Source: Patescibacteria group bacterium (GTDB lineage Bacteria; Patescibacteriota; Minisyncoccia; Phycocordibacterales; PALSA-1337). Taken from it: a stretch of 64,000 nucleotides of DNA. The translations under genes were made by a program, and so were the position numbers. The DNA lies in NCBI GenBank assembly GCA_040388415.1, contig JAZKBV010000004.1, positions 24,069-88,068 on the forward strand, written 5' to 3'. Within the stretch, counting starts at the first letter, position 1; the number at the start of each line of letters is the position of its first letter. The notes under the pieces were generated by a model. The model had not been told where the DNA came from. It saw only the letters and a list, made by a program, of their open reading frames with translations, and did no database searches. Below are positions 3,251 to 60,948 of the stretch, piece after piece.

Positions 3251-4150
3251 TTATTTCTCCTCGCTCACAATCGTCACCGCTTTTGCTACTATAGGTAAAA
3301 TATCGTTATAGAAGTTAAGTTCAAGGATAGCGTCGAGCTTGAACCATTTTGCATCAGCGAGTCCCGGTTTCTTAGCGAGAGTGAGCGTCTTGAAATCAGA
3401 CTCGGCGAGATAGTAGTGCACTTGCTTGCGGATCTTGCCGATCTCGGGATCATTGGCGATATATTCATTTTCACCGAGGTCAGCGATGATCTTTACTTCA
3501 AGACCGATCTCTTCCATCACTTTGTTGATAGTACCCTGCTTCGGATCAACTTCCGGTGGAATCTTGCCCTTTGAGAGGGTCCAGTGGCCGAAGACATCAT
3601 AGACGAAGGCCATATAGACATCTGCGCCGTCACGAGCATATACCACTGCACCACCTAAGTGTTGGATTGGCATTTGCTCATAAGGGACTTCAACCTTCTT
3701 TTTCTTTATCGGCTGGGCATCCTTTCCTGGCTCACCGAGCTCTTTGTAAACTGCACCGAGAACGCCGTTGACGAAACGACCGCTTGTCTCACCGCCAAAG
3801 GTCTTTGCAAGCTCGATGGCTTCATTGATAGCTACTTTCGCAGGCACTTCAACGCGATCAGCAAAGAGAAGCTCATAAAGACCGAGACGGAGCACGTTAC
3901 GGTCTATCGGTGAGATCTTGTCGATAGGCCACTCAGGCGCTGCCTTTGAGATGATGTCATCGAGCTCACTATGTTTAGCGAGGATACCCTTCATAAGCTC
4001 ATCCATGAATGAAACATCGGCTACCCCGGGAGCGAACTCTTTTGCATCGCGCTCTATGATAACAGATGAGGTTGCATCTTTTTTGCCACAAAAATCCCAC
4101 TCAAAAAGTGCCTGGAGGACAACTGAGCGAGATAAATGTCTATTTGCCAT
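3251..4150 (-). CDS. nusB: NusB-family antitermination domain fused to a C-terminal Nudix-like domain (degenerate Nudix box)
   Basis: The N-terminus has RSVVLQALFEWDF...DRNVLRLGLYEL...VPAKVAINEAIELAKTFGGETSGRFVNGVLG, which is typical NusB. The C-terminal 150 aa reads GAVVYARDG...GHWTLSKGKIPPEVDPKQGTINKVMEEIGLEV, matching Gx5Ex7REUxEExGU only at the EExGU positions. Confidence 0.75.
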   Translation of the reverse strand: MANRHLSRSVVLQALFEWDFCGKKDATSSVIIERDAKEFAPGVADVSFMDELMKGILAKHSELDDIISKAAPEWPIDKISPIDRNVLRLGLYELLFADRVEVPAKVAINEAIELAKTFGGETSGRFVNGVLGAVYKELGEPGKDAQPIKKKKVEVPYEQMPIQHLGGAVVYARDGADVYMAFVYDVFGHWTLSKGKIPPEVDPKQGTINKVMEEIGLEVKIIADLGENEYIANDPEIGKIRKQVHYYLAESDFKTLTLAKKPGLADAKWFKLDAILELNFYNDILPIVAKAVTIVSEEK

Positions 4151-9099: not shown

Positions 9100-10398
9100 T
9101 TACTGCGTTGTCGCTTGTCTGATCAAAGAGTCATATCGTATGCCCGTATCTTCGATCGCTTGGAAAGACGACCTCTGCCCTGTCGTGATTGATTCTATCA
9201 TATTGCCGAGTAATTGGGCTGACTGAACTGGGTCTGGATCGAGCCATGCTTTGCTGACAAGTGCTGCCTCGCCGAATACTGAAAGATATGGATCACTCGA
9301 GCCTTGAGCGATAAGATCGGTGCGCACGGGAGGCAGATACATCGTCTTTGCGAGCGAAGCGAGATAGGTTGGTTGAGTCAGTATAGAGAGAACTTGATAT
9401 GTGCCGTTGGCATTTGCACTTGAACGAACGATGGAGAAACCGTACATGCGTCCATAGGTCGCCTTGACGCCTCCCTTGCGTATCTGCGGAAGCGGTGCAG
9501 CGTCAAAATTGAGATTCTGGTTTTTTTCACGGATACTCGAAAGCTCTGAAGCAAATCCAAAATACGTAGCAAGATCGCCCGCAAGGAAAGCAGTGCGAGA
9601 ATCTGACATGCCGCGGTTCCAAGAATAATTCGGGTTGGTGGCGTCGACAAATTGTGAGAAGAAATCAAGTACGAGCTTTGGATTCACTTGCGCCGATAGA
9701 CGCAATGTCGACTGAAGCGTTCCTTGAGCATTGTATGCAGTGACAGGGTTACCCATTTGCATCAGGAGTGAGCCGAGGATCTCACGAGCACTCAAGACAT
9801 TGGTGAAATCGCCAAGAGCGATGGCCGATTTTCTGACGTTGCCGTTTGAATCTTTGACGGTGAGCTTTGGGATGATAGTGGTGAACTCGTCCCAGTAATG
9901 GGGATAAGTTGCTATGCCTGCAGTATTGAACATGTCGCGATTCCAATACATGATCAATGGATCAATAGTGAAAGGCAGTGCGAGTATGCCTGTATCCGTC
10001 GTATACATCTGAGCCTCCTGGATATACGTATCTCTATATGTGCGTGCAGAAAGCGCAGAGTACGGTATGAGCGCAATCTTGTCCTCATGTGGCAAGATTG
10101 TGTCTGCCGGGATGAGGATAGCGTCAGGGCCTATACCGCGTGCGAGAGCTGCGATGAACTGCTGTGAGAAAGCTGATGGATCTATCTGCTTGTAGGTAAC
10201 TGAAATCGGCGATGACGAGTTGTTATTTATATTTGAAACATAATCGTTGAATATGCCTGAAGAAAATGTGCCCCATATGGTGATAGCGGGCAATTGTGTG
10301 CTGCTGCTCGTATTCCCTTTGTACATAGCAAATGAAACTACACCCACAATGATGAAAAGTACGAATACGCCGAGAAGGATAATTTGAAATTTGGTCAT
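9100..10398 (-). CDS. Membrane-anchored extracellular solute-binding-protein-like protein (SBP family 1-like), orphan
   Basis: N-terminal TM anchor. SBP-like motifs: LPAITIWGTF, GIGPDAILIPADTI, YWNRDMFNTAGI. No adjacent permease or ATPase genes. Confidence 0.45.
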   Translation of the reverse strand: MTKFQIILLGVFVLFIIVGVVSFAMYKGNTSSSTQLPAITIWGTFSSGIFNDYVSNINNNSSSPISVTYKQIDPSAFSQQFIAALARGIGPDAILIPADTILPHEDKIALIPYSALSARTYRDTYIQEAQMYTTDTGILALPFTIDPLIMYWNRDMFNTAGIATYPHYWDEFTTIIPKLTVKDSNGNVRKSAIALGDFTNVLSAREILGSLLMQMGNPVTAYNAQGTLQSTLRLSAQVNPKLVLDFFSQFVDATNPNYSWNRGMSDSRTAFLAGDLATYFGFASELSSIREKNQNLNFDAAPLPQIRKGGVKATYGRMYGFSIVRSSANANGTYQVLSILTQPTYLASLAKTMYLPPVRTDLIAQGSSDPYLSVFGEAALVSKAWLDPDPVQSAQLLGNMIESITTGQRSSFQAIEDTGIRYDSLIRQATTQ

Positions 10399-18425: not shown

Positions 18426-19676
18426 TTGAATAAAAATACACGTATGAATACTAAGAATAAAAAGCCTCAAGATAGTAAATTTATTCCCTACGACCATCTC
18501 GACAAGATCGGTGAGACAAGCATCTATTACGGTTTTACGCCGACAAAGAGCCCCGTCATCACCAAAGCTGACCTTGATGCCGCAAAAGACATCATGGAGG
18601 GCGATCATATCGATGATGAATCTGAAAAGCATGGACGTCTCCCTCTCCATGCAGAGGAAAAGATAGCGATCATCCGTTCATATCATGAAGCGGGCTGGCA
18701 CGCTCAGCCTCAGCCAGTCATGTTGTATTTCAAAGACCCTTTCCGTGGTTCAATCAAAAAGAACGGCTATCATCGCTACGCCGATCTCGAAATCATCGGT
18801 TCATCTGGTTCTATTGCGGAAGCAACACTCATACAGACGACTCGCGCAATGCTCGCTGAAGAAGGCTATGTTGAAACTGCTGTTGAGATCAACTCGATCG
18901 GTGATCGTGATTCGATAGCCCGTTTTGCGCGCGAACTGACTGCGTATTACCGCAAACATATCAATGAAATGACTCCTGAGGCGCGTCAGATCCTCAAACG
19001 TGACCCATTTGAGCTCCTCTCATGGCACGATGAATCATGCACTGAGCTCAACGCCAAAGCGCCTCGTTCAATGGATTTCTTATCTGAAAGTAGCCGTCGT
19101 CACCTTGAGGAGATACTCGAATACTGTGAGACGCTCGGTATCCCCTACACCGTGAACAATAGTTTGATCGGAAATCGTAAATACTGCACAGAAACGATCA
19201 TCGCAATAGTCAACACTTCTACCAACAAAAAAGACCAGCGTTTGCTCGCAATCGGCGTTCGCTATAACGGTCTTGCAAAGCGCCTCAATATGAAGCGCGA
19301 TGTGCCAGGAGTAGGCATGTCCATGCTCGTCAAAGAGAGCAGTCCAGCGCTCCGAAAGTCTGTATCAAAGATGAAGCGCCCTATCGCATCGTTTGTTCAG
19401 CTTGGTATGGAATCAAAACTTGTCGCACTCAATGTTGTTGAACAGCTTCGCCAAGCAAAGATCCCGCTGTATCTCTGTCTCGCCAAAGATCGTCTCACCG
19501 CGCAAGTTTCTGCAAACGAAAAATTCCATATGCCCTACACAATAGTCATGGGAAAAAAGGAGGCGGTCGAGAAAACTGCTATCGTCCGAAATACTGATAC
19601 GCATGCCCAGAGCATCATCCCTCTCGATGAATTGTCGAAATATATGAAGAAGACCGAGGCTGACTATTGGGGGTAG
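18426..19676 (+). CDS. hisS: Histidyl-tRNA synthetase-like protein (divergent class II core plus HisRS-type anticodon-binding domain)
   Basis: FRGSIKKNGYHRYADLEIIGS is motif-2-like. The C-terminal anticodon-binding domain reads PIASFVQLGMESKLVALNVVEQLRQAKIPLY...MPYTIVMGKKE. Catalytic motifs are degenerate, so a HisZ-like paralog is not excluded. Confidence 0.6.
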   Translation: MNKNTRMNTKNKKPQDSKFIPYDHLDKIGETSIYYGFTPTKSPVITKADLDAAKDIMEGDHIDDESEKHGRLPLHAEEKIAIIRSYHEAGWHAQPQPVMLYFKDPFRGSIKKNGYHRYADLEIIGSSGSIAEATLIQTTRAMLAEEGYVETAVEINSIGDRDSIARFARELTAYYRKHINEMTPEARQILKRDPFELLSWHDESCTELNAKAPRSMDFLSESSRRHLEEILEYCETLGIPYTVNNSLIGNRKYCTETIIAIVNTSTNKKDQRLLAIGVRYNGLAKRLNMKRDVPGVGMSMLVKESSPALRKSVSKMKRPIASFVQLGMESKLVALNVVEQLRQAKIPLYLCLAKDRLTAQVSANEKFHMPYTIVMGKKEAVEKTAIVRNTDTHAQSIIPLDELSKYMKKTEADYWG

Positions 19677-36326: not shown

Positions 36327-37468
36327 TTACCTCAACACCGCCTTGAATTCCCCTGCTGTCCGCTCACGGATCTTCTCATGGATAGCATTGACCTCTTCGT
36401 TGGTCAGCGTACGTTCAAGGGAACGATAAATAATACGGAATGTATAGCTGACCTTATCTGCCCCGAACTTTGCTGCATTTTCAAAGGTATCTACGAGTTT
36501 GAATTCCTCGACGAGGTCACCGGCTATATCACGAACAAGCTCAAAATACGTATTGAGACTAACGCTCTTATCGACGATAAATGAGATATCACGCAACACT
36601 GCAGGATATTTACTAACTTCTTTGTATACAGAATCGATACCAGTGAACTGACTGGTAATTCGAGGATCATCAGACCAGAGGATACGGATATCAGGAATGC
36701 TCATCTTGATCATAGCAAGACGCTCGCCGAAGCCAAATGCCCAGCCATTATAAATCTCTGGATCAAGTCCGAAATTTTTTAAAACGATCGGATTGACCAG
36801 ACCAGCGCCGTTGACTTCGAGCCAGTTGCCATTGAATTTGATGTCCATCTCCAAACTCTCAACCGTATAAGGGAAATTATCCTCCAAAAATTGGTACTCG
36901 ATACCCTTTCCGAATATGCCAGACGCGAGGTCGAGTTGAACTGCCTTGAGATCATCTTGAGTTATTTTTTTCTTTTCTTTCTTGCAGATATATAAACCGT
37001 CAATCTGATGGAATGCAGGGAAATGGTGTCTATCGATTTCATCCTTGCGATAGACGATACCTGGCGCCAAAGCCATGATCTCCCCTTCTTTTTCGAGGCG
37101 CTCGCGAACCGCTGGATCAGTGAGATAGAATGACCAAAATGCCGTCATCTGAGTGCGGAGCATGTGTGCAGGGTCAATATAGTATGTGTCAGTTTCTTTG
37201 CGACTGACATGATCAGCAGGCGTATTGAGAAGATTGAAATTTTGCTCAACTGAGACGATCTTTGGAAATTCGACAAGGTCAAAATCTTTGAAACGAGGCA
37301 AGTTGATGATTTGATCAAAGAGGATTTTGACGGGTGAATTCGCTTTCTTGGTGAGGTCTGGCAATGCCAAATGACGCTTTATACGCAAAGCTGTTGTATC
37401 GGTGCGACCATCAAGGCTAGCAACGAGCTTTGATTCATTCGGATCTGTCATGATGATGTGGTTGCGCA
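36327..37468 (-). CDS. pheS: Single-chain (mitochondrial-type) phenylalanyl-tRNA synthetase: PheS catalytic core fused to a C-terminal FDX-ACB anticodon-binding domain
   Basis: TPADHVSRKETDTYY, motif 2 APGIVYRKDEIDRHHFPAFHQIDGL, and motif 3 GWAFGFGERLAMIKMSIPDIRILW. The C-terminal 100 aa (YKEVSKYPAVLRDISFIV...GDLVEEFKLVDTF...YRIIYRSLERTLTNEEVNAIHEKI) aligns with the human FARS2 and PheT FDX-ACB domain. The start may be at 37450. Confidence 0.8.
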
Positions 37469-37551
37469 TGGGTAACACTATAGCAAAAAGTGGGCAAAAT
37501 AAAAGCCCCACATTGCTGCGAGGCCGAGATTACATTCAATCTCGAAAGTGT

Positions 37552-40439: not shown

Positions 40440-41366
40440 TTATTTTTTTGCTTTTGTCGAAGTTGATGTGATATTCGGATTGATCAGTACCCAACGAAGC
40501 TGATACACGCTCACCCCTGGAGAGAAGAGTACTGTTTCAAATGGATCCGCGGGATTATTGATGACAGCAGTGACCGTACCAAACGCCCCATCATCGAGAG
40601 ACGTATCAAGGATAATGTCTCCCTCAGCGATCTTTGTTGCTTGAGGAACCTGAGCCTCGTACTGGCCACCACCGCGACCGACAGCGGTTGCAGGTATATG
40701 ATTTGAGCCAATCAACACAGGATATGTTTGCCCTGGTGAAGACAGTAAAGTTATTTTTGAGGTCTGTCCGAACACATCAGTCGTAGTGCCAATAAGTATA
40801 TTTCCTGGAGCATATACTTTTGTGCCAAGCGCTACACCTTGATTGAGCCCTGCATCGACGATCAGTTCGTCATATCCAGTCAGTGGTGGACGAACAAGCA
40901 CTGCGGCAAGGATTCGCCCATTGACCGAACTGAGTGATGCAAATGTTTTGCTGATATTCGACACTGATGTGGATGATGCGGATGTAGATGAACCAAAATC
41001 TTCAGCCTCACTGCCTGTTGTGTTAAAAGAAGTTATATTGAGATCAGGGCGGCCAAGGACAGAGAGGAGGTCTGCATTCTGCGTGCGCACCAGATCAGCA
41101 GCGGCGTCTTGTATTGACACTTCTTGAAGGCGCACCTTGAGAGCTTCATTCACAGCCAAAAGCTCGGTAGGAGATCTGAGCGAACCGCTTTGTATAGAAA
41201 ATTCTACGCGCCAAAATGGACGAGCAATAGTGGTAAAAAGAGCCGGTAAAAAATGCGGTATGAGGAACTGAAAGACGGCCACAACAACAATCAGAACACC
41301 GATAATGAGTCCTGCAATTCGAGTGCGACGTTCTGATGGCCTGCTACTTGTTCGGATATACATCAT
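40440..41366 (-). CDS. mreC: Rod shape-determining protein MreC
   Basis: N-terminal TM helix, coiled-coil, then a beta-rich domain. The start ATGATG at 41366/41363 overlaps the mreB 3' end. Confidence 0.75.
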   Translation of the reverse strand: MMYIRTSSRPSERRTRIAGLIIGVLIVVVAVFQFLIPHFLPALFTTIARPFWRVEFSIQSGSLRSPTELLAVNEALKVRLQEVSIQDAAADLVRTQNADLLSVLGRPDLNITSFNTTGSEAEDFGSSTSASSTSVSNISKTFASLSSVNGRILAAVLVRPPLTGYDELIVDAGLNQGVALGTKVYAPGNILIGTTTDVFGQTSKITLLSSPGQTYPVLIGSNHIPATAVGRGGGQYEAQVPQATKIAEGDIILDTSLDDGAFGTVTAVINNPADPFETVLFSPGVSVYQLRWVLINPNITSTSTKAKK

Positions 41367-42414
41367 CGTCGCTGTCCAACAGGACCGCCTTATACTTATC
41401 CAAATCTTCCAAGATGATACCTGCACCGCGTGCAATAGCGGTCAACGGATCTTCAGCTATCGTTACAGGAATATTGAGCGTCTCACGGAGCAGTTCATCC
41501 AATCCTTTGATGAGAGCACCACCACCGACCAAGTGGATGCCACGCTTCATGATGTCAGCAAGAATCTCAGGGGGAGTTGTTTCAAGGGCTTCTCGTGCGG
41601 ACTCGACGATACTATTGATCGACTGGTTCATCGCTTCACGGATATCTGAGTCAGTGATGATCACTTCACGTGGGAGACCTGTGATGAGATCGCGTCCACG
41701 GATAGTAGTCTCGACAGCCTCTCCTGGCATAACGATACCGACACTGATCTTTACTTGCTCAGCCGTTGTCTCACCGATCAAGATTTTAAATTCATTGCGG
41801 ATATATGAAATGATATCGTTATTGAGCTTATCGCCAGCGATCTTGAGATTTTTTGAGCGCACAATACCGCCAAGTGAAATAATAGCGATGTCTGTCGTTC
41901 CTCCGCCAATATCGATGACCATAGAGCCAACGGGGTCATGTACAGGGAGACGAATACCAATCGCGCCTGCCATCGGTTGTTCTACGATGTAGACTTCTCT
42001 CGCACCAGCATTTTTTGCTGCATCACGAACTGCGCGGACTTCAACGTTCGTTACGCCAGATGGTACGCCGATCACGACGCGCGGACCAAGAAACTTTTTG
42101 GGGAGATACTCGTGTGCGCGCTTCATGAGGTATGCAAGCATTTCTTCAGTCACTTCAAAATCAGAGATGACTCCATCGACGAGCGGACGCACCGCAGTGA
42201 TATGAGTTGGCGTACGTCCCAACATTTCTTTTGCAGCAGTACCTACAGCGACAACTTGTCCTGTTTTTTGATTGACTGCGACCACCGAAGGTTCGTTGAC
42301 CACGATACCCTTTCCACGCACATACACGAGCGTATTGGCAGTACCAAGGTCAATGCCGATATCGTTAGAAAAACGGCTGAGTAGCTTGTCTTTTTTCTCC
42401 TTGAAAGACGTCAT
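41344..42414 (-). CDS. mreB: Rod shape-determining protein MreB
   Basis: IGIDLGTANTLVYV actin-fold phosphate 1 motif. 356 aa. Confidence 0.9.
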   Translation of the reverse strand: MTSFKEKKDKLLSRFSNDIGIDLGTANTLVYVRGKGIVVNEPSVVAVNQKTGQVVAVGTAAKEMLGRTPTHITAVRPLVDGVISDFEVTEEMLAYLMKRAHEYLPKKFLGPRVVIGVPSGVTNVEVRAVRDAAKNAGAREVYIVEQPMAGAIGIRLPVHDPVGSMVIDIGGGTTDIAIISLGGIVRSKNLKIAGDKLNNDIISYIRNEFKILIGETTAEQVKISVGIVMPGEAVETTIRGRDLITGLPREVIITDSDIREAMNQSINSIVESAREALETTPPEILADIMKRGIHLVGGGALIKGLDELLRETLNIPVTIAEDPLTAIARGAGIILEDLDKYKAVLLDSDDDVYPNK

Positions 42415-42470: not shown

Positions 42471-43709
42471 TTACATAACATCAGAAAGCTTCACCATCTC
42501 CACTTTCCCAGTCAATCTATCTTTCTTTTCAACTGAATCCTCTGCGATAGTTTTTGCACTGATCGTATAGCGAGTTGGAATACCGATCAGATCTGAGTCA
42601 CCAAATTTTTCACCTGCTGTAGTATCACGATCATCATAGAGAACTTCAACTCCCTTTGCTTTCATTTTTTCATATAATTCATCTGCGACTGGTTTTACCT
42701 TTCCTTCTTTATCGAAAAGCGCGACGAGATGCACTGCGAATGGTGCGACCGCAACTGGCCAGACAAGACCCTTGTCATCACCGTACGTTTCAACGATCGT
42801 ACCCATGAGACGCCCAGGACCAATGCCGTAACTACCCATGACGACAGGAACTGACTTACCTGCTTCATTGGCATATACGAGTCCAAGCGCATCAGAAAAA
42901 CGCGTACCCAACGAAAAGATATTACCTACCTCTACCGCTTTCTTTTCAATGAGTTCTTCTCGCTTCACACCAAGGTCAGCGAGCACTTCATCATTCAACA
43001 CTTCTTTGTTGATAGCGATTTTTTTGCCTTCGTGAATGTAAATCAAATCTTCGCCCGCATCAGTGATAGTTTGGAATTCGTGGGAATACTTTGAGAATGA
43101 TCCTCCGCTCGCAAATGTGACATATGTCTGTGAACCCAGACCTACACGATCAAATATTCGTACGTATGCCTCCTTGGCCTTCTCATAAAAATCCGCATGG
43201 GCATGTTCGTCGACATTGAATGAATAGAGATCTTTCATCAAGAATTCACGGCCGCGCATGATGCCGGATTTGGCGCGCGCTTCATTACGGAACTTAGTTT
43301 GAAATTGATATGCGGACACAGGTAAATCACGGAATGAACGAATATAGTTGCGCATGAGGACAGTCAACGGCTCTTCATGAGTAAAACCGAGGCCAAGCTC
43401 TGTGCCATTTTTGAGCTGTGTCTTGAACCAATTATCAACCAGCTTGTCATCCCATCGTCCAGATGTTTCCCACGGAGTTTTGTCCTGAAGCGCGGTGAGC
43501 GAGACTTCCTGTCCGCCGATTGTATTCATCTCTTCGCGGATGATACCCACAATCTTGTTGAGCACACGTAAACCTAGTGGGAGATACGAGTAGACTCCTG
43601 CCATCTCCTTGTTGATATAGCCTGCACGGATGAGCAACTGAGCATTCTTGGCAACTTCATCTTTTGGAGCCTCGCGACGCGTCTTGGTAAATAGGTGTGT
43701 TTGTTTCAT
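42471..43709 (-). CDS. proS: Prolyl-tRNA synthetase, short bacterial form without an editing domain
   Basis: Class II motifs FRNEARAKSGIMRGREF and GSYGIGPGR, plus a C-terminal anticodon-binding domain. Start taken at MKQTHLF (43709). Confidence 0.85.
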   Translation of the reverse strand: MKQTHLFTKTRREAPKDEVAKNAQLLIRAGYINKEMAGVYSYLPLGLRVLNKIVGIIREEMNTIGGQEVSLTALQDKTPWETSGRWDDKLVDNWFKTQLKNGTELGLGFTHEEPLTVLMRNYIRSFRDLPVSAYQFQTKFRNEARAKSGIMRGREFLMKDLYSFNVDEHAHADFYEKAKEAYVRIFDRVGLGSQTYVTFASGGSFSKYSHEFQTITDAGEDLIYIHEGKKIAINKEVLNDEVLADLGVKREELIEKKAVEVGNIFSLGTRFSDALGLVYANEAGKSVPVVMGSYGIGPGRLMGTIVETYGDDKGLVWPVAVAPFAVHLVALFDKEGKVKPVADELYEKMKAKGVEVLYDDRDTTAGEKFGDSDLIGIPTRYTISAKTIAEDSVEKKDRLTGKVEMVKLSDVM

Positions 43710-43823
43710 GGGGATAATGATACCCAATAATGAAGATATTTGCACGGCATTGACGTGCGCACACATGAAAGATAAAGTAGTGACAGTCTTAGATCGGTAT
43801 GGCATGAAGCTATACCTTTTACA

Positions 43824-47904: not shown

Positions 47905-48918
47905 TTATCTCTTCGCCACAATCGCCTTCTTATATACACCCAAATGCTCGAGAGCGATACCAGTTCCCTTTGCTACACAGAGGAGCGGTTCTTCGGCTAG
48001 CTGTGCCTTAACGCCAGTGCGACGGAATACAAGCTCAGGAAGGTTACGGAGCAGTGACGAACCACCAGTGAGCATGATGCCCTGATCGATGATATCAGCA
48101 GCGAGCTCAGGCGGTGTCTCTTGGAGAACGTCTTTGATCGCTTTGATCATATCGCGGAGCTCGGCAGTGATCGCTTTGACGATCTCATTTGTCTTGATCT
48201 CAGTTGAGCGTGGGAGACCGGTGATGAAGTCGCGACCCTTAACCTGCATCGAGAGCTCCTGATCGAGCGGAATAGCTGAGCCAATATTCATTTTGATATT
48301 TTCTGCCATATGATCACCGATAGCGAGGTTAAATGTTTTCTTTACATAATCAGTGATAGCATTGTCGATTTTATTTCCTGCGCACTTCACCGACGTCGAT
48401 GAAACGATACCGCCGAGAGAAATAACTGCGACGTCAGTTGTACCGCCACCGATATCTACCACCATATGACCTTTTGCTTCATGAATAGGAATGCCTGCAC
48501 CGATTGCAGCGAGAATAGGCTCTTTGACAACATATGCATTCTTGGCACCAGCACGAATAGCAGCTTCGATGACCGCACGACGCTCGGTAGATGTAACACC
48601 TGCGGGAACAGAGACCATGACATCAGGTTTGAAAAGATTGAAACGACCGAGTGCTTTGTCGATGAAATAGCGGAGCATTGCTTCGGTCACACGATAGTCA
48701 GCGATAACCCCATCTTTCATAGGACGATAGGCGACAATCGTATCTGGCGTACGACCGACCATTTCTTTTGCCTCGACGCCAACAGCAAGAACTTTCTTAT
48801 CGACTTCAGAGATAGCGACGACGGTTGGTTCATTGAGAACGATTCCCTTTCCAGGCACAAAAACAAGAGTATTTGCCGTACCCAAATCAATGCCGAGTTT
48901 TGGAGAAAACATGTTCAT
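47905..48918 (-). CDS. mbl: Second MreB/Mbl-like actin homolog
   Basis: LGIDLGTANTLVFV. 337 aa and colinear with MreB at 41344-42414. Confidence 0.85.
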   Translation of the reverse strand: MNMFSPKLGIDLGTANTLVFVPGKGIVLNEPTVVAISEVDKKVLAVGVEAKEMVGRTPDTIVAYRPMKDGVIADYRVTEAMLRYFIDKALGRFNLFKPDVMVSVPAGVTSTERRAVIEAAIRAGAKNAYVVKEPILAAIGAGIPIHEAKGHMVVDIGGGTTDVAVISLGGIVSSTSVKCAGNKIDNAITDYVKKTFNLAIGDHMAENIKMNIGSAIPLDQELSMQVKGRDFITGLPRSTEIKTNEIVKAITAELRDMIKAIKDVLQETPPELAADIIDQGIMLTGGSSLLRNLPELVFRRTGVKAQLAEEPLLCVAKGTGIALEHLGVYKKAIVAKR

Positions 48919-56128: not shown

Positions 56129-56201
56129 TCCTCGGTAGCTCAGCTGGTAGAGCAGCTCGCTGTTAACGAGTTGGTCGTAGGTTCGAATCCTACCCGAGGA
56201 G
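56129..56201 (+). tRNA. tRNA-Asn (anticodon GTT); its 3' end is overlapped by the recombinase gene (integration site)
   Basis: TCCTCGGTAGCTCAGCTGGTAGAGCAGCTCGCTGTTAACGAGTTGGTCGTAGGTTCGAATCCTACCCGAGGAG. Confidence 0.85.
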
Positions 56202-57743
56202 CATTGTAGGACGAGAGGGCACAAAAGTGCTCTCTTTTCTTTTTATGGAGCCATTATTTTCTGGTTCGAAAGTGTTATTAAGTAAAGGCACCCATTTAGC
56301 AAGAAATTCAAAGGCTAAAGTGTATTGTGGGGCTATAACATTAGCTTTCATTGAGATGTTCGAAAATATCTGACTTAAAAGCAATCTCTTTTGCTCAACA
56401 GTCGTCTTTGGACCCAAATATATATCTTTTGCCTTCATAGCTAGCTCATGAATTGAATACCCTGCTTCGTAATATCTCTGACGGTCCTCAGAAAGTTTTT
56501 TTAATGAATCCAACAGGACTTCATTTTCTCTTTTTGTATCTTCAAAGACCTTTGTGTACATCTCTCCAGTAATGGCACCATCCAGTTTATCCATATAAAC
56601 TTTCTCCATTCTGTTGTCATTACGCTTAATGAGCCTAGATATCTCTTCTTTCCTGAGACCATGTTCTTGAATCTCATCTGCATGACTTTCTTTTAATGCT
56701 TTTTCTAACCACGCAATAACCCTAGGATTTTTAGGGGCTATCTTGTCGAAATAAGCAAAAAGCTCTTTTTCAACCTCTTCCTGTCGAATCCATTTAGCCT
56801 TTGGACAGCCTTTATAATAATTACAGTGCCCATACCAATGCCCTTTTTGAGTCTCCCATGTAATCACACCTTTACATACCTCACAGTTAAGCTTCGCTTT
56901 GAATACTGGAGTGTGTTTTCTATATGAAGGAGACTGATTTTTACGGTTTAATTTATCTTGAACAAGATTAAATAATTCTTGTGAAATCAATGGCTCATGC
57001 TTTCCTTGATAAATCTCATTGTTCCACCTTATCTTTCCGTAGTAGAAAGGGTCACTCAAAAAATCATGCATTCTCGTCTTACCTACTCTGGTTCCAAAAT
57101 TATTTCTAAATCCCTCCTTATACAAAACATTACTCAGTTCTTGGACCGAATAGTTGCCAGTTGAATACAGGTCAAACATCCGCTTTATATACTGAGCCTT
57201 TTCAGGATTAATTACATGTATCTTATGACCCTTTTCTCCTTGTGATTTATAACCTAATGGTGCCCTAACAGGTGCCCAGCCTTGAGAAAGCTTCTCTTTC
57301 TGCCCTTTGCGGACCTCTTCAGACAAATTTGATATATACTTCTTAGCCAAAACTATTTCAATGTCCCATCTAAACCTTTCATCAGATTTTGCATTTCTGT
57401 GTATCACTAAATTTTGCTTCACAAAGTGAATCTTGCGATTTACATCAGCATCAATCCAATCGTTCGCCACGACTGCTTCCTTGAGGTTTCTAGTTAGTCG
57501 GTCAACCTTTTCGCACAACAGATTATTAACCCCATTCTTAGTCATGTAATCAATCATGTCTGAAAACACCTTTCTTTGCTTTGCACCACTTGCAGATTCA
57601 GCAACAGAAAAAGTTTTTACTACCTTCATATCCTTTCTTTGCGCATGTTCCTCTAGCAACTTCTCTTGTGCTGGCAAAGAATAGCCAGTTTCCTCCTGTT
57701 CTTTTGAACTCACTCGGGCATATATAACAGCTTTTTCTTTCAT
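56190..57743 (-). CDS. Large serine recombinase (serine integrase)
   Basis: N-terminal resolvase catalytic domain (AVIYARVSSKEQ, catalytic Ser). Recombinase domain. Zinc-ribbon and coiled-coil region (CEVCKGVITWETQKGHWYGHCNYYKGCP). 517 aa. Confidence 0.85.
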   Translation of the reverse strand: MKEKAVIYARVSSKEQEETGYSLPAQEKLLEEHAQRKDMKVVKTFSVAESASGAKQRKVFSDMIDYMTKNGVNNLLCEKVDRLTRNLKEAVVANDWIDADVNRKIHFVKQNLVIHRNAKSDERFRWDIEIVLAKKYISNLSEEVRKGQKEKLSQGWAPVRAPLGYKSQGEKGHKIHVINPEKAQYIKRMFDLYSTGNYSVQELSNVLYKEGFRNNFGTRVGKTRMHDFLSDPFYYGKIRWNNEIYQGKHEPLISQELFNLVQDKLNRKNQSPSYRKHTPVFKAKLNCEVCKGVITWETQKGHWYGHCNYYKGCPKAKWIRQEEVEKELFAYFDKIAPKNPRVIAWLEKALKESHADEIQEHGLRKEEISRLIKRNDNRMEKVYMDKLDGAITGEMYTKVFEDTKRENEVLLDSLKKLSEDRQRYYEAGYSIHELAMKAKDIYLGPKTTVEQKRLLLSQIFSNISMKANVIAPQYTLAFEFLAKWVPLLNNTFEPENNGSIKRKESTFVPSRPTMLLG

Positions 57744-60651: not shown

Positions 60652-60948
60652 TTTGTTACTGGTTTTAGGTAGCATAAAGCCCACCACGTGGGCGACGGCT
60701 TGCGCCATCCATACCAGTTTCCCGATATGACCAGTAACGATAGCCCCACATGATGGGTTTTCTACTCGTTACTGGTTTTTTCACCATGTCAGTATTTCTA
60801 CTGATTTAGGCTACTCGTATAAAATATTGAATTGTGTTCCCATTAAACCATAAAATACTCTCGTTTAAAAGTGACATTGGGGCATTTGTTGATAAGTTTA
60901 ATATCAATCTAGTGTATAATATTGATATCAGTTTTTGATATTTGAACA

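Follow-up and report, generated by a model that had tools for sequence, protein, structure and literature searches.

The textbook phenylalanyl-tRNA synthetase (PheRS) is, to our knowledge, an (alpha-beta)2 heterotetramer in all bacteria, in archaea and in the eukaryotic cytosol, and the monomeric form is regarded as an organellar oddity. The organellar enzymes form a class of their own, PheRS-M, in AARS Online (PMC11580382), and those of human (FARS2) and yeast (MSF1) consist of one chain with a PheS-type catalytic core followed by a C-terminal FDX-ACB domain. Here we describe a gene for a predicted protein of the same organization in a 64,000-nucleotide stretch of DNA (hereafter the window) from a Patescibacteria group bacterium, an ultra-small member of the candidate phyla radiation (CPR; GenBank assembly GCA_040388415.1, contig JAZKBV010000004.1, positions 24,069 to 88,068). 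A first-pass annotation, made from the sequence alone, had proposed that it encodes a monomeric, mitochondrial-type PheRS. We find that it is probably the housekeeping PheRS of this organism, a single chain that would lack editing, and that close relatives are encoded in many other Patescibacteria.

Gene and domain organization

The PheRS gene is on the minus strand at 36327..37469 and is a complete coding sequence of 380 codons plus a stop, an assignment drawn from the list of open reading frames (ORFs) in the window, a public gene call and the lengths of homologues. If read from a GTG codon the ORF extends to 37511 (36327..37511) and encodes 394 residues. Translation almost certainly begins at the ATG at 37469 instead, because gene callers pick it (the 380-residue version is called on a public contig), because it fits the lengths of the homologues, and because the GTG frame shares sequence with a terminator-like hairpin of the upstream gene. 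The 120 closest homologues have 71–96% identity and nearly all are 374–384 residues long. The first-pass annotation ended the gene at 37468, which misses one base and breaks the frame.

Two Pfam matches, both far beyond chance, account for most of the protein. The first is to tRNA-synt_2d (PF01409) at residues 38–275 (36645..37358; E 7.5e-50) and corresponds to a class II PheS-type catalytic core, as also indicated by residue mapping to the E. coli and human enzymes and by conservation in 166 family members. The second is to FDX-ACB (PF03147) at residues 286–380 (36330..36614), which spans all of the profile (positions 1–94 of 94; E 2.5e-25, 89 bits with a cut-off of 31); this segment also matches positions 700–800 of a PheT profile, equivalent to PheT domain B8, and is a predicted anticodon-binding domain. 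The core and the C-terminal domain were both proposed in the first-pass annotation, and the profile search it had called for bears out the latter. Its claim that the C-terminus aligns position for position with human FARS2 needs qualification, as the two are colinear but separated by indels of one and three residues, and of the peptides it quoted, all present in the protein, one was miscopied (FRIIYRS is encoded, not YRIIYRS).

The N-terminal coiled coil of canonical alpha subunits is missing, as had been noted, since the alignment to E. coli PheS begins only at E. coli residue 108 (36% identity over E. coli residues 108–326). In place of this segment of about 100 residues there is a short helical extension at residues 1–37 (37359..37469), modelled as a short strand and two helices with confidence (pLDDT, see below) above 90. 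A Pfam scan of the 380-residue protein gives no match to PF02912, B3_4 or B5.

Predicted fold and functional residues

Among proteins of solved structure the best match by sequence is human mitochondrial PheRS (E 5e-57), with bacterial alpha subunits at 1e-36. An AlphaFold2 model of the 380-residue protein, built on a 57-sequence alignment, has a predicted local distance difference test score (pLDDT) of 95 and a predicted template-modelling score (pTM) of 0.90. When this model was compared with the PDB using Foldseek, the top matches were 3cmq and 5mgw, human mitochondrial PheRS in its closed state, which align with the predicted structure over the entire chain (TMq 0.79–0.81, root mean square deviation 2.9–3.8 Å, 390–406 columns). 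Canonical alpha subunits superpose on the model over the core only. No close fold match was found in a viral structure library.

Functional residues were mapped using an alignment that took in human FARS2 and E. coli PheS as well as representatives from every related group. We consider this alignment valid because the classic specificity residues of the E. coli enzyme, T251 and A294, fall on T202 and A244. By this mapping the catalytic core carries H87, S89, R90, R141, Q155, D157, F199, Y201, T202, A244, G246 and R250; these include the ligands of the amino group and ATP (H87, S89, R90, R141, Q155 and R250), the wall of the phenylalanine ring pocket (F199 and Y201), and G246. Human mitochondrial PheRS contacts anticodon base G34 through D364, F366, S375 and R414 in mature numbering (PMC7540514), and the equivalent positions here are D327, F329, S341 and R380. 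Across the 166 family members the active-site and G34-contact residues are invariant, with the exceptions of S89 (Ala in four), exchanges of Phe and Tyr at 201 and 329, and R380, which falls in a gap in two sequences.

Search for pheT

A profile hidden Markov model of PheT was built from 120 PheT sequences and run against six-frame ORFs of the window and 53 fetched loci (928 kb in total); the fetched loci amount to 0.86 Mb and are mostly flanks of CPR PheRS genes. The B3/4-B5-B6/7 core of PheT has no match in these 928 kb. Two other parts of the profile do match, one being positions ~695–800 (domain B8), which are found inside the single-chain genes themselves, and the other positions 1–155, found in small upstream ORFs at seven loci (see below). 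In the window the sole PheT-like stretch is the C-terminus of the PheRS, which aligns to E. coli PheT residues 698–794. The statement that no pheT adjoins the gene is therefore borne out, both beside the PheRS gene and across the 64 kb window. The genes infC-rpmI-rplT, the usual neighbours of pheST, were not found in the window or in the loci, and the other CPR genome papers searched yielded nothing on pheT. A canonical operon at one locus (L053) was considered as a source of CPR PheT and rejected; it has no close relatives, and its nearest named matches are from Lentisphaerae, Omnitrophica and Cloacimonadota at 30–38% identity.

Distribution and gene neighbourhood

More than 4600 database proteins match the PheRS at E 1e-10 or better. 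Sampling one genome per species in GTDB yielded 46 loci, all of them in Patescibacteria metagenome-assembled genomes (MAGs) that include Paceibacterota, Moran-, Staskawicz-, Wolfe- and Portnoybacteria; some of the ENA labels on these loci (e.g. 'Bdellovibrionales') are evidently mis-mapped. Public contigs that are 96–100% identical over the gene have the same neighbours and are labelled Candidatus Paceibacterota or Pacebacteria.

The window PheRS gene is preceded by genes coding for a 246-residue hypothetical protein and PBP2 and followed by a small convergent ORF and gyrB, and the wider neighbourhood is one of gyrB, PBP2, mreBC and proS. A terminator-like hairpin is present on the minus strand between the 246-residue gene and the PheRS start (37504..37525; a 9-bp stem followed by a T-run, from a consensus scan); presumably serving the upstream gene, it weakly suggests that the PheRS gene is transcribed on its own. 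The gyrB gene is near the PheRS gene in 20 of the 46 loci and directly downstream in most of these. The identities of the PheRS proteins (~72–77%) are comparable to those of GyrB (66–82%), as would be expected of a core gene. No tRNA-Phe gene was found, either in the window or in the sequence flanking the gene at the related loci. In L007, L017 and L026 (at about 9650–9990), and also in L005 and L038, the single-chain PheRS gene has a tRNA-Thr(UGU) gene ~30–350 nt upstream of it.

Among the more distant family members, two (P0125 and P0127) have Trp at conserved Gly positions (e.g. AFGIWVERIA), L055:9463-10833 being listed with them, and one distant member does not translate under table 11; together these suggest hosts using code 25 (UGA=Gly) of the Gracilibacteria or Absconditabacteria type. 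A CPR-type member with 51% identity is present in an 'Oligoflexia' MAG (L054:10001-11245; JAIBBV010000034.1), where it is surrounded by peptidase, GCS2, enolase-superfamily and beta-lactamase genes. This copy may represent horizontal transfer to a bacterium outside the CPR, or a binning error.

Relationship to known PheRS families

A library-wide HMMER search recovered 240 clusters (at 50% identity) with E 1e-30 or better, which fall into three groups: the CPR family, a FARS2-like group, and true SrmL, the 'PheS-related mystery ligase' of NCBIfam. The FARS2-like group includes eukaryotic mitochondrial enzymes of a fern, a choanoflagellate, a chytrid and amphioxus, together with forms of 340–360 residues that are without the eukaryotic insertion and are encoded on contigs of 160–341 kb. 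The phylogeny called for in the first-pass annotation was run as neighbour-joining trees with bootstraps, and the CPR family is monophyletic in these, with 87–89% support using all columns and 100% using the catalytic domain. It lies outside the clade of eukaryotic and phage proteins, although the method is crude and deep nodes are not resolved.

The description 'mitochondrial-type' is thus apt for architecture, predicted fold and tRNA-recognition residues but not for orthology, as the CPR proteins form a separate clade and the window protein scores 244.1 bits with the mitochondrial model (pheS_mito, TIGR00469), below its cut-off of 258.35; a more distant CPR family member, P0121, passes at 264.3. 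Judging from these comparisons, the protein most likely works like a mitochondrial PheRS without being a member of that orthologous group.

Probable assignment as a housekeeping PheRS and alternative explanations

The sequence comparisons and the structural model make it probable that this gene encodes the organism's housekeeping PheRS as an editing-free single chain; its activity on tRNA-Phe, its monomeric state and its status as the sole PheRS are parts of this assignment that we infer. In the mechanism we propose, the class II core would make Phe-AMP and transfer Phe to tRNA-Phe, and the fused FDX-ACB domain, the last domain of PheT in ordinary bacteria, would select the tRNA through G34. 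By analogy with the human enzyme, G34 would stack on F329 and be hydrogen-bonded by D327, S341 and R380. Because the B3/4 editing domain is absent, charging of tRNA-Phe would proceed without post-transfer proofreading.

Several observations weigh against this assignment. There are three local departures from canonical PheRS near the active site. Position 157 has Asp for Glu and position 201 has Tyr for Phe, both conservative changes, and motif 3 (GFG-ERL) is shorter by one residue in 150 of the 166 family members. The window protein falls below every NCBIfam PheRS trusted cut-off, reaching 147.9 bits with pheS (TIGR00468; cut-off 237.45) in addition to the shortfall with pheS_mito, and its top NCBIfam score, 248.8 bits, is to the SrmL model NF051887, itself below the cut-off of 300. 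The failure to find a PheT core covers 17–21 kb per relative, so that an unlinked pheT would be expected only about once by chance over all of the relatives together, and hence says little about whole genomes. Lastly, the published annotation table of one CPR genome, PMX_810_sub, lists a 681-residue pheT and a canonical pheS that includes the N-terminal domain. The CPR is therefore not uniform, and replacement of the canonical enzyme is not universal. The stored table for this genome holds one pheS, one pheT and no second pheS, which is compatible with the single-chain and canonical systems being alternatives to each other.

One alternative is that the protein is a catalytic chain that is not truly monomeric, either self-associating or needing a partner such as a small protein resembling the PheT N-terminus or YtpR that acts in trans. 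An ORF of 142–165 codons is located 10–12 nt upstream of the PheRS gene and on the same strand in seven of the 46 loci (L011:9561-9989 and L012:9484-9981, as well as L008, L010, L014, L027 and L031). Its product matches E. coli PheT residues 1–153 at 41–50% identity and passes the NCBIfam cut-off for the YtpR tRNA-binding family (136 bits with a cut-off of 100), and more than 100 such stand-alone proteins are found in Moranbacteria and Parcubacteria. In Moranbacteria-type relatives, where the ORF sits between tyrS and the PheRS gene, the protein might assist tRNA binding in trans, and the PheRS system of some relatives may not be strictly one polypeptide. We considered that the ORF is a plain relic of pheT and rejected this, given its score above the YtpR cut-off and its location next to tyrS. 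The same position beside tyrS counts against a dedicated PheRS partner, since the protein, which has a relative (TapR) that NCBIfam describes as 'TyrS-associated', may serve TyrRS or act generally. Moreover, the 64 kb window has no such ORF, nor do the other 39 loci have one next to the PheRS gene, and the human mitochondrial enzyme is known to be active without one, as reportedly established by Klipcan et al. in 2008 and 2012 (PDB 3CMQ and 3TUP). A partner-requiring or self-associating chain seems unlikely.

A second alternative is that the gene codes for an accessory PheS-like paralogue that, in the manner of SrmL, would ligate something other than Phe to tRNA-Phe beside a canonical PheS and PheT encoded elsewhere in the genome. 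The SrmL model gives the top NCBIfam score, as noted above, Asp157 and Tyr201 are common to both groups, and SrmL is a possible sister clade of the CPR family in the neighbour-joining trees, with 95–96% support using all columns. The homologue in the large-genome 'Oligoflexia' MAG, situated among metabolic genes, could likewise be accessory. However, support for the grouping of CPR and SrmL drops to 51% with the catalytic domain alone, and we therefore reject a firm sister relationship. True SrmL proteins score 387–446 bits with their own model. They have replaced His87, Phe199 and Phe245, and have lost three of the four G34 contacts (329, 341 and 380), whereas the window protein keeps all of these; SrmL itself probably acts on a substrate other than that of PheRS, to judge by these residues. 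The neighbourhoods differ as well. At the one SrmL locus that we examined (L052:8001-9149, 387 bits) the gene diverges from one for a radical SAM enzyme, after which come NUDIX-like, unknown and asparagine-synthase-like genes, and the window gene is instead amid gyrB, PBP2, mreBC and proS. Because of the score below the cut-off, the retained PheRS residues and the different neighbourhood, we do not regard the window protein as SrmL, and a role as an accessory paralogue appears quite unlikely.

Single-chain PheRS genes are also carried by viruses. Full-length forms are present on 47 IMG/VR contigs (L056–L102), many of them 200–536 kb and some from giant-virus MAGs. The 635 kb phage LR745206.1 has one as well (at 613869-614882), and two further contigs, L049 (160 kb) and L050 (341 kb), have one among phage-like or unannotated genes. 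Several of the viral forms pass the TIGR00469 cut-off. These raise the question of whether the window gene is foreign DNA that came from a huge phage or a eukaryotic organelle, through mis-assembly or recent transfer. This is highly improbable, and the synteny conserved in independent MAGs (L001, L003 and L004, with the same neighbours at 96–100% identity) all but refutes it. In addition, the viral copies are just 28–41% identical, the CPR clade is monophyletic (87–100%), and the GC content near the gene does not stand out from that of the window.

Implications

In full-text searches of the literature, including papers on CPR and on the classification of aminoacyl-tRNA synthetases, neither SrmL nor a bacterial single-chain PheRS was described, and within that literature the latter appears to be new. 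The architecture itself has organellar precedent, and the sequences are public but poorly named. The closest 120 homologues are named 'hypothetical protein' by NCBI, because the protein scores just under every NCBIfam cut-off, and 'PheRS alpha chain' by JGI. Completeness estimates and phylogenomic studies count pheS and pheT models among their marker genes. With scores that fall between the cut-offs and the name 'hypothetical protein', these genomes would therefore look as if they were without PheRS markers.

Here an organelle-type PheRS design is encoded on the chromosome and conserved in many free-standing lineages of bacteria. If the single chain is the sole PheRS, then Phe codons are translated without a B3/4 editing site, which bears on the need for proofreading in a minimal cell, and mitochondrial PheRS, with its unexplained origin, gains a prokaryotic context, as do its phage-borne and 'mystery ligase' relatives. 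At 380 residues it would also be a compact bacterial PheRS scaffold for engineering. A broader scenario is that much of the Patescibacteria, namely Paceibacteria/Parcubacteria lineages and probably also those of code-25 Gracilibacteria type, completely exchanged the universal heterotetrameric proofreading PheRS for the editing-free single chain, and that together with the relatives in huge phages these represent the prokaryotic stock from which mitochondrial PheRS, with an origin other than alphaproteobacterial, and SrmL were drawn. We regard this scenario as doubtful.

Other features of the window

The first-pass annotation placed the PheRS in a streamlined set of aminoacyl-tRNA synthetases with a short ProRS and a divergent HisRS. 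This fits what we find for ProRS (42471-43805, minus strand), whose 444 residues align to bacterial-type ProRS as two segments and do not include the INS editing domain; by sequence, the ProRS and PheRS of this genome both appear to lack editing modules and follow the same trend. A 416-residue protein (18426-19676, plus strand) is probably the divergent HisRS; only an HGTP anticodon-binding domain is recognised in it (E 1.7e-9), the catalytic core being too divergent for Pfam.

There are two MreB-family genes, both on the minus strand (41344-42414 and 47905-48918), one of which is within the mreBC-PBP2 cluster beside the PheRS gene. A 299-residue protein (3251-4150, minus strand) has an unusual fusion of an N-terminal NusB domain and a C-terminal NUDIX domain. 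Between ~56000 and 64000 the GC content falls from about 0.45 to 0.34–0.37. A large serine recombinase gene (56190-57743, minus strand) abuts a tRNA-Asn gene (56129-56202) here, and beyond it are genes for a 'Beta protein' (PF14350) and an M78/IrrE-like peptidase, as well as a LOOT RNA (60694-60812, minus strand; 87.5 bits). The region looks like a mobile element integrated at tRNA-Asn.

Comparison with known PheRS systems

With the canonical (alpha-beta)2 enzymes (TIGR00468 plus TIGR00472) the window protein shares homology in both of its parts, the core being homologous to PheS and the C-terminal domain to PheT B8. It differs in that the two pieces are fused within 380 residues, the PheS coiled coil and PheT B1–B7 (including the editing site) are absent, and no pheT is adjacent. 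It does not belong to the canonical PheS class, given 147.9 bits with TIGR00468, no N-terminal domain and an extra 95-residue FDX-ACB domain. SrmL has the same two-domain architecture and a similar length; it too has Asp157 and Tyr201, and its C-terminal domain carries an insertion at the corresponding site. The viral forms (340–360 residues) also have a PheS core plus FDX-ACB and, like the CPR protein, no eukaryotic insertion, but they are only 28–41% identical to it and cluster with the eukaryotic mitochondrial enzymes.

The closest correspondence is with mitochondrial PheRS (3CMQ, 3TUP; TIGR00469), with which the CPR protein has in common the single chain with its core and C-terminal FDX-ACB, the lack of a coiled coil, of an editing domain and, presumably, of a beta subunit, the general fold and the packing of the domains in the closed state (TM 0.8 for the predicted model), and the active-site residues together with the Asp/aromatic/Ser/Arg set at G34. 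There are nonetheless differences. The CPR protein is without the transit peptide and the ~35-residue eukaryote-specific insertion after motif 2, has an insertion of 8–10 residues before motif 2, and keeps a 'DPExY' loop of bacterial length that is shortened in the mitochondrial and phage clade. It has Asp157 for Glu, Tyr201 for Phe and the one-residue motif 3 deletion, and its gene lies on a bacterial chromosome with housekeeping genes as neighbours. In the trees it falls in a separate and well-supported clade.

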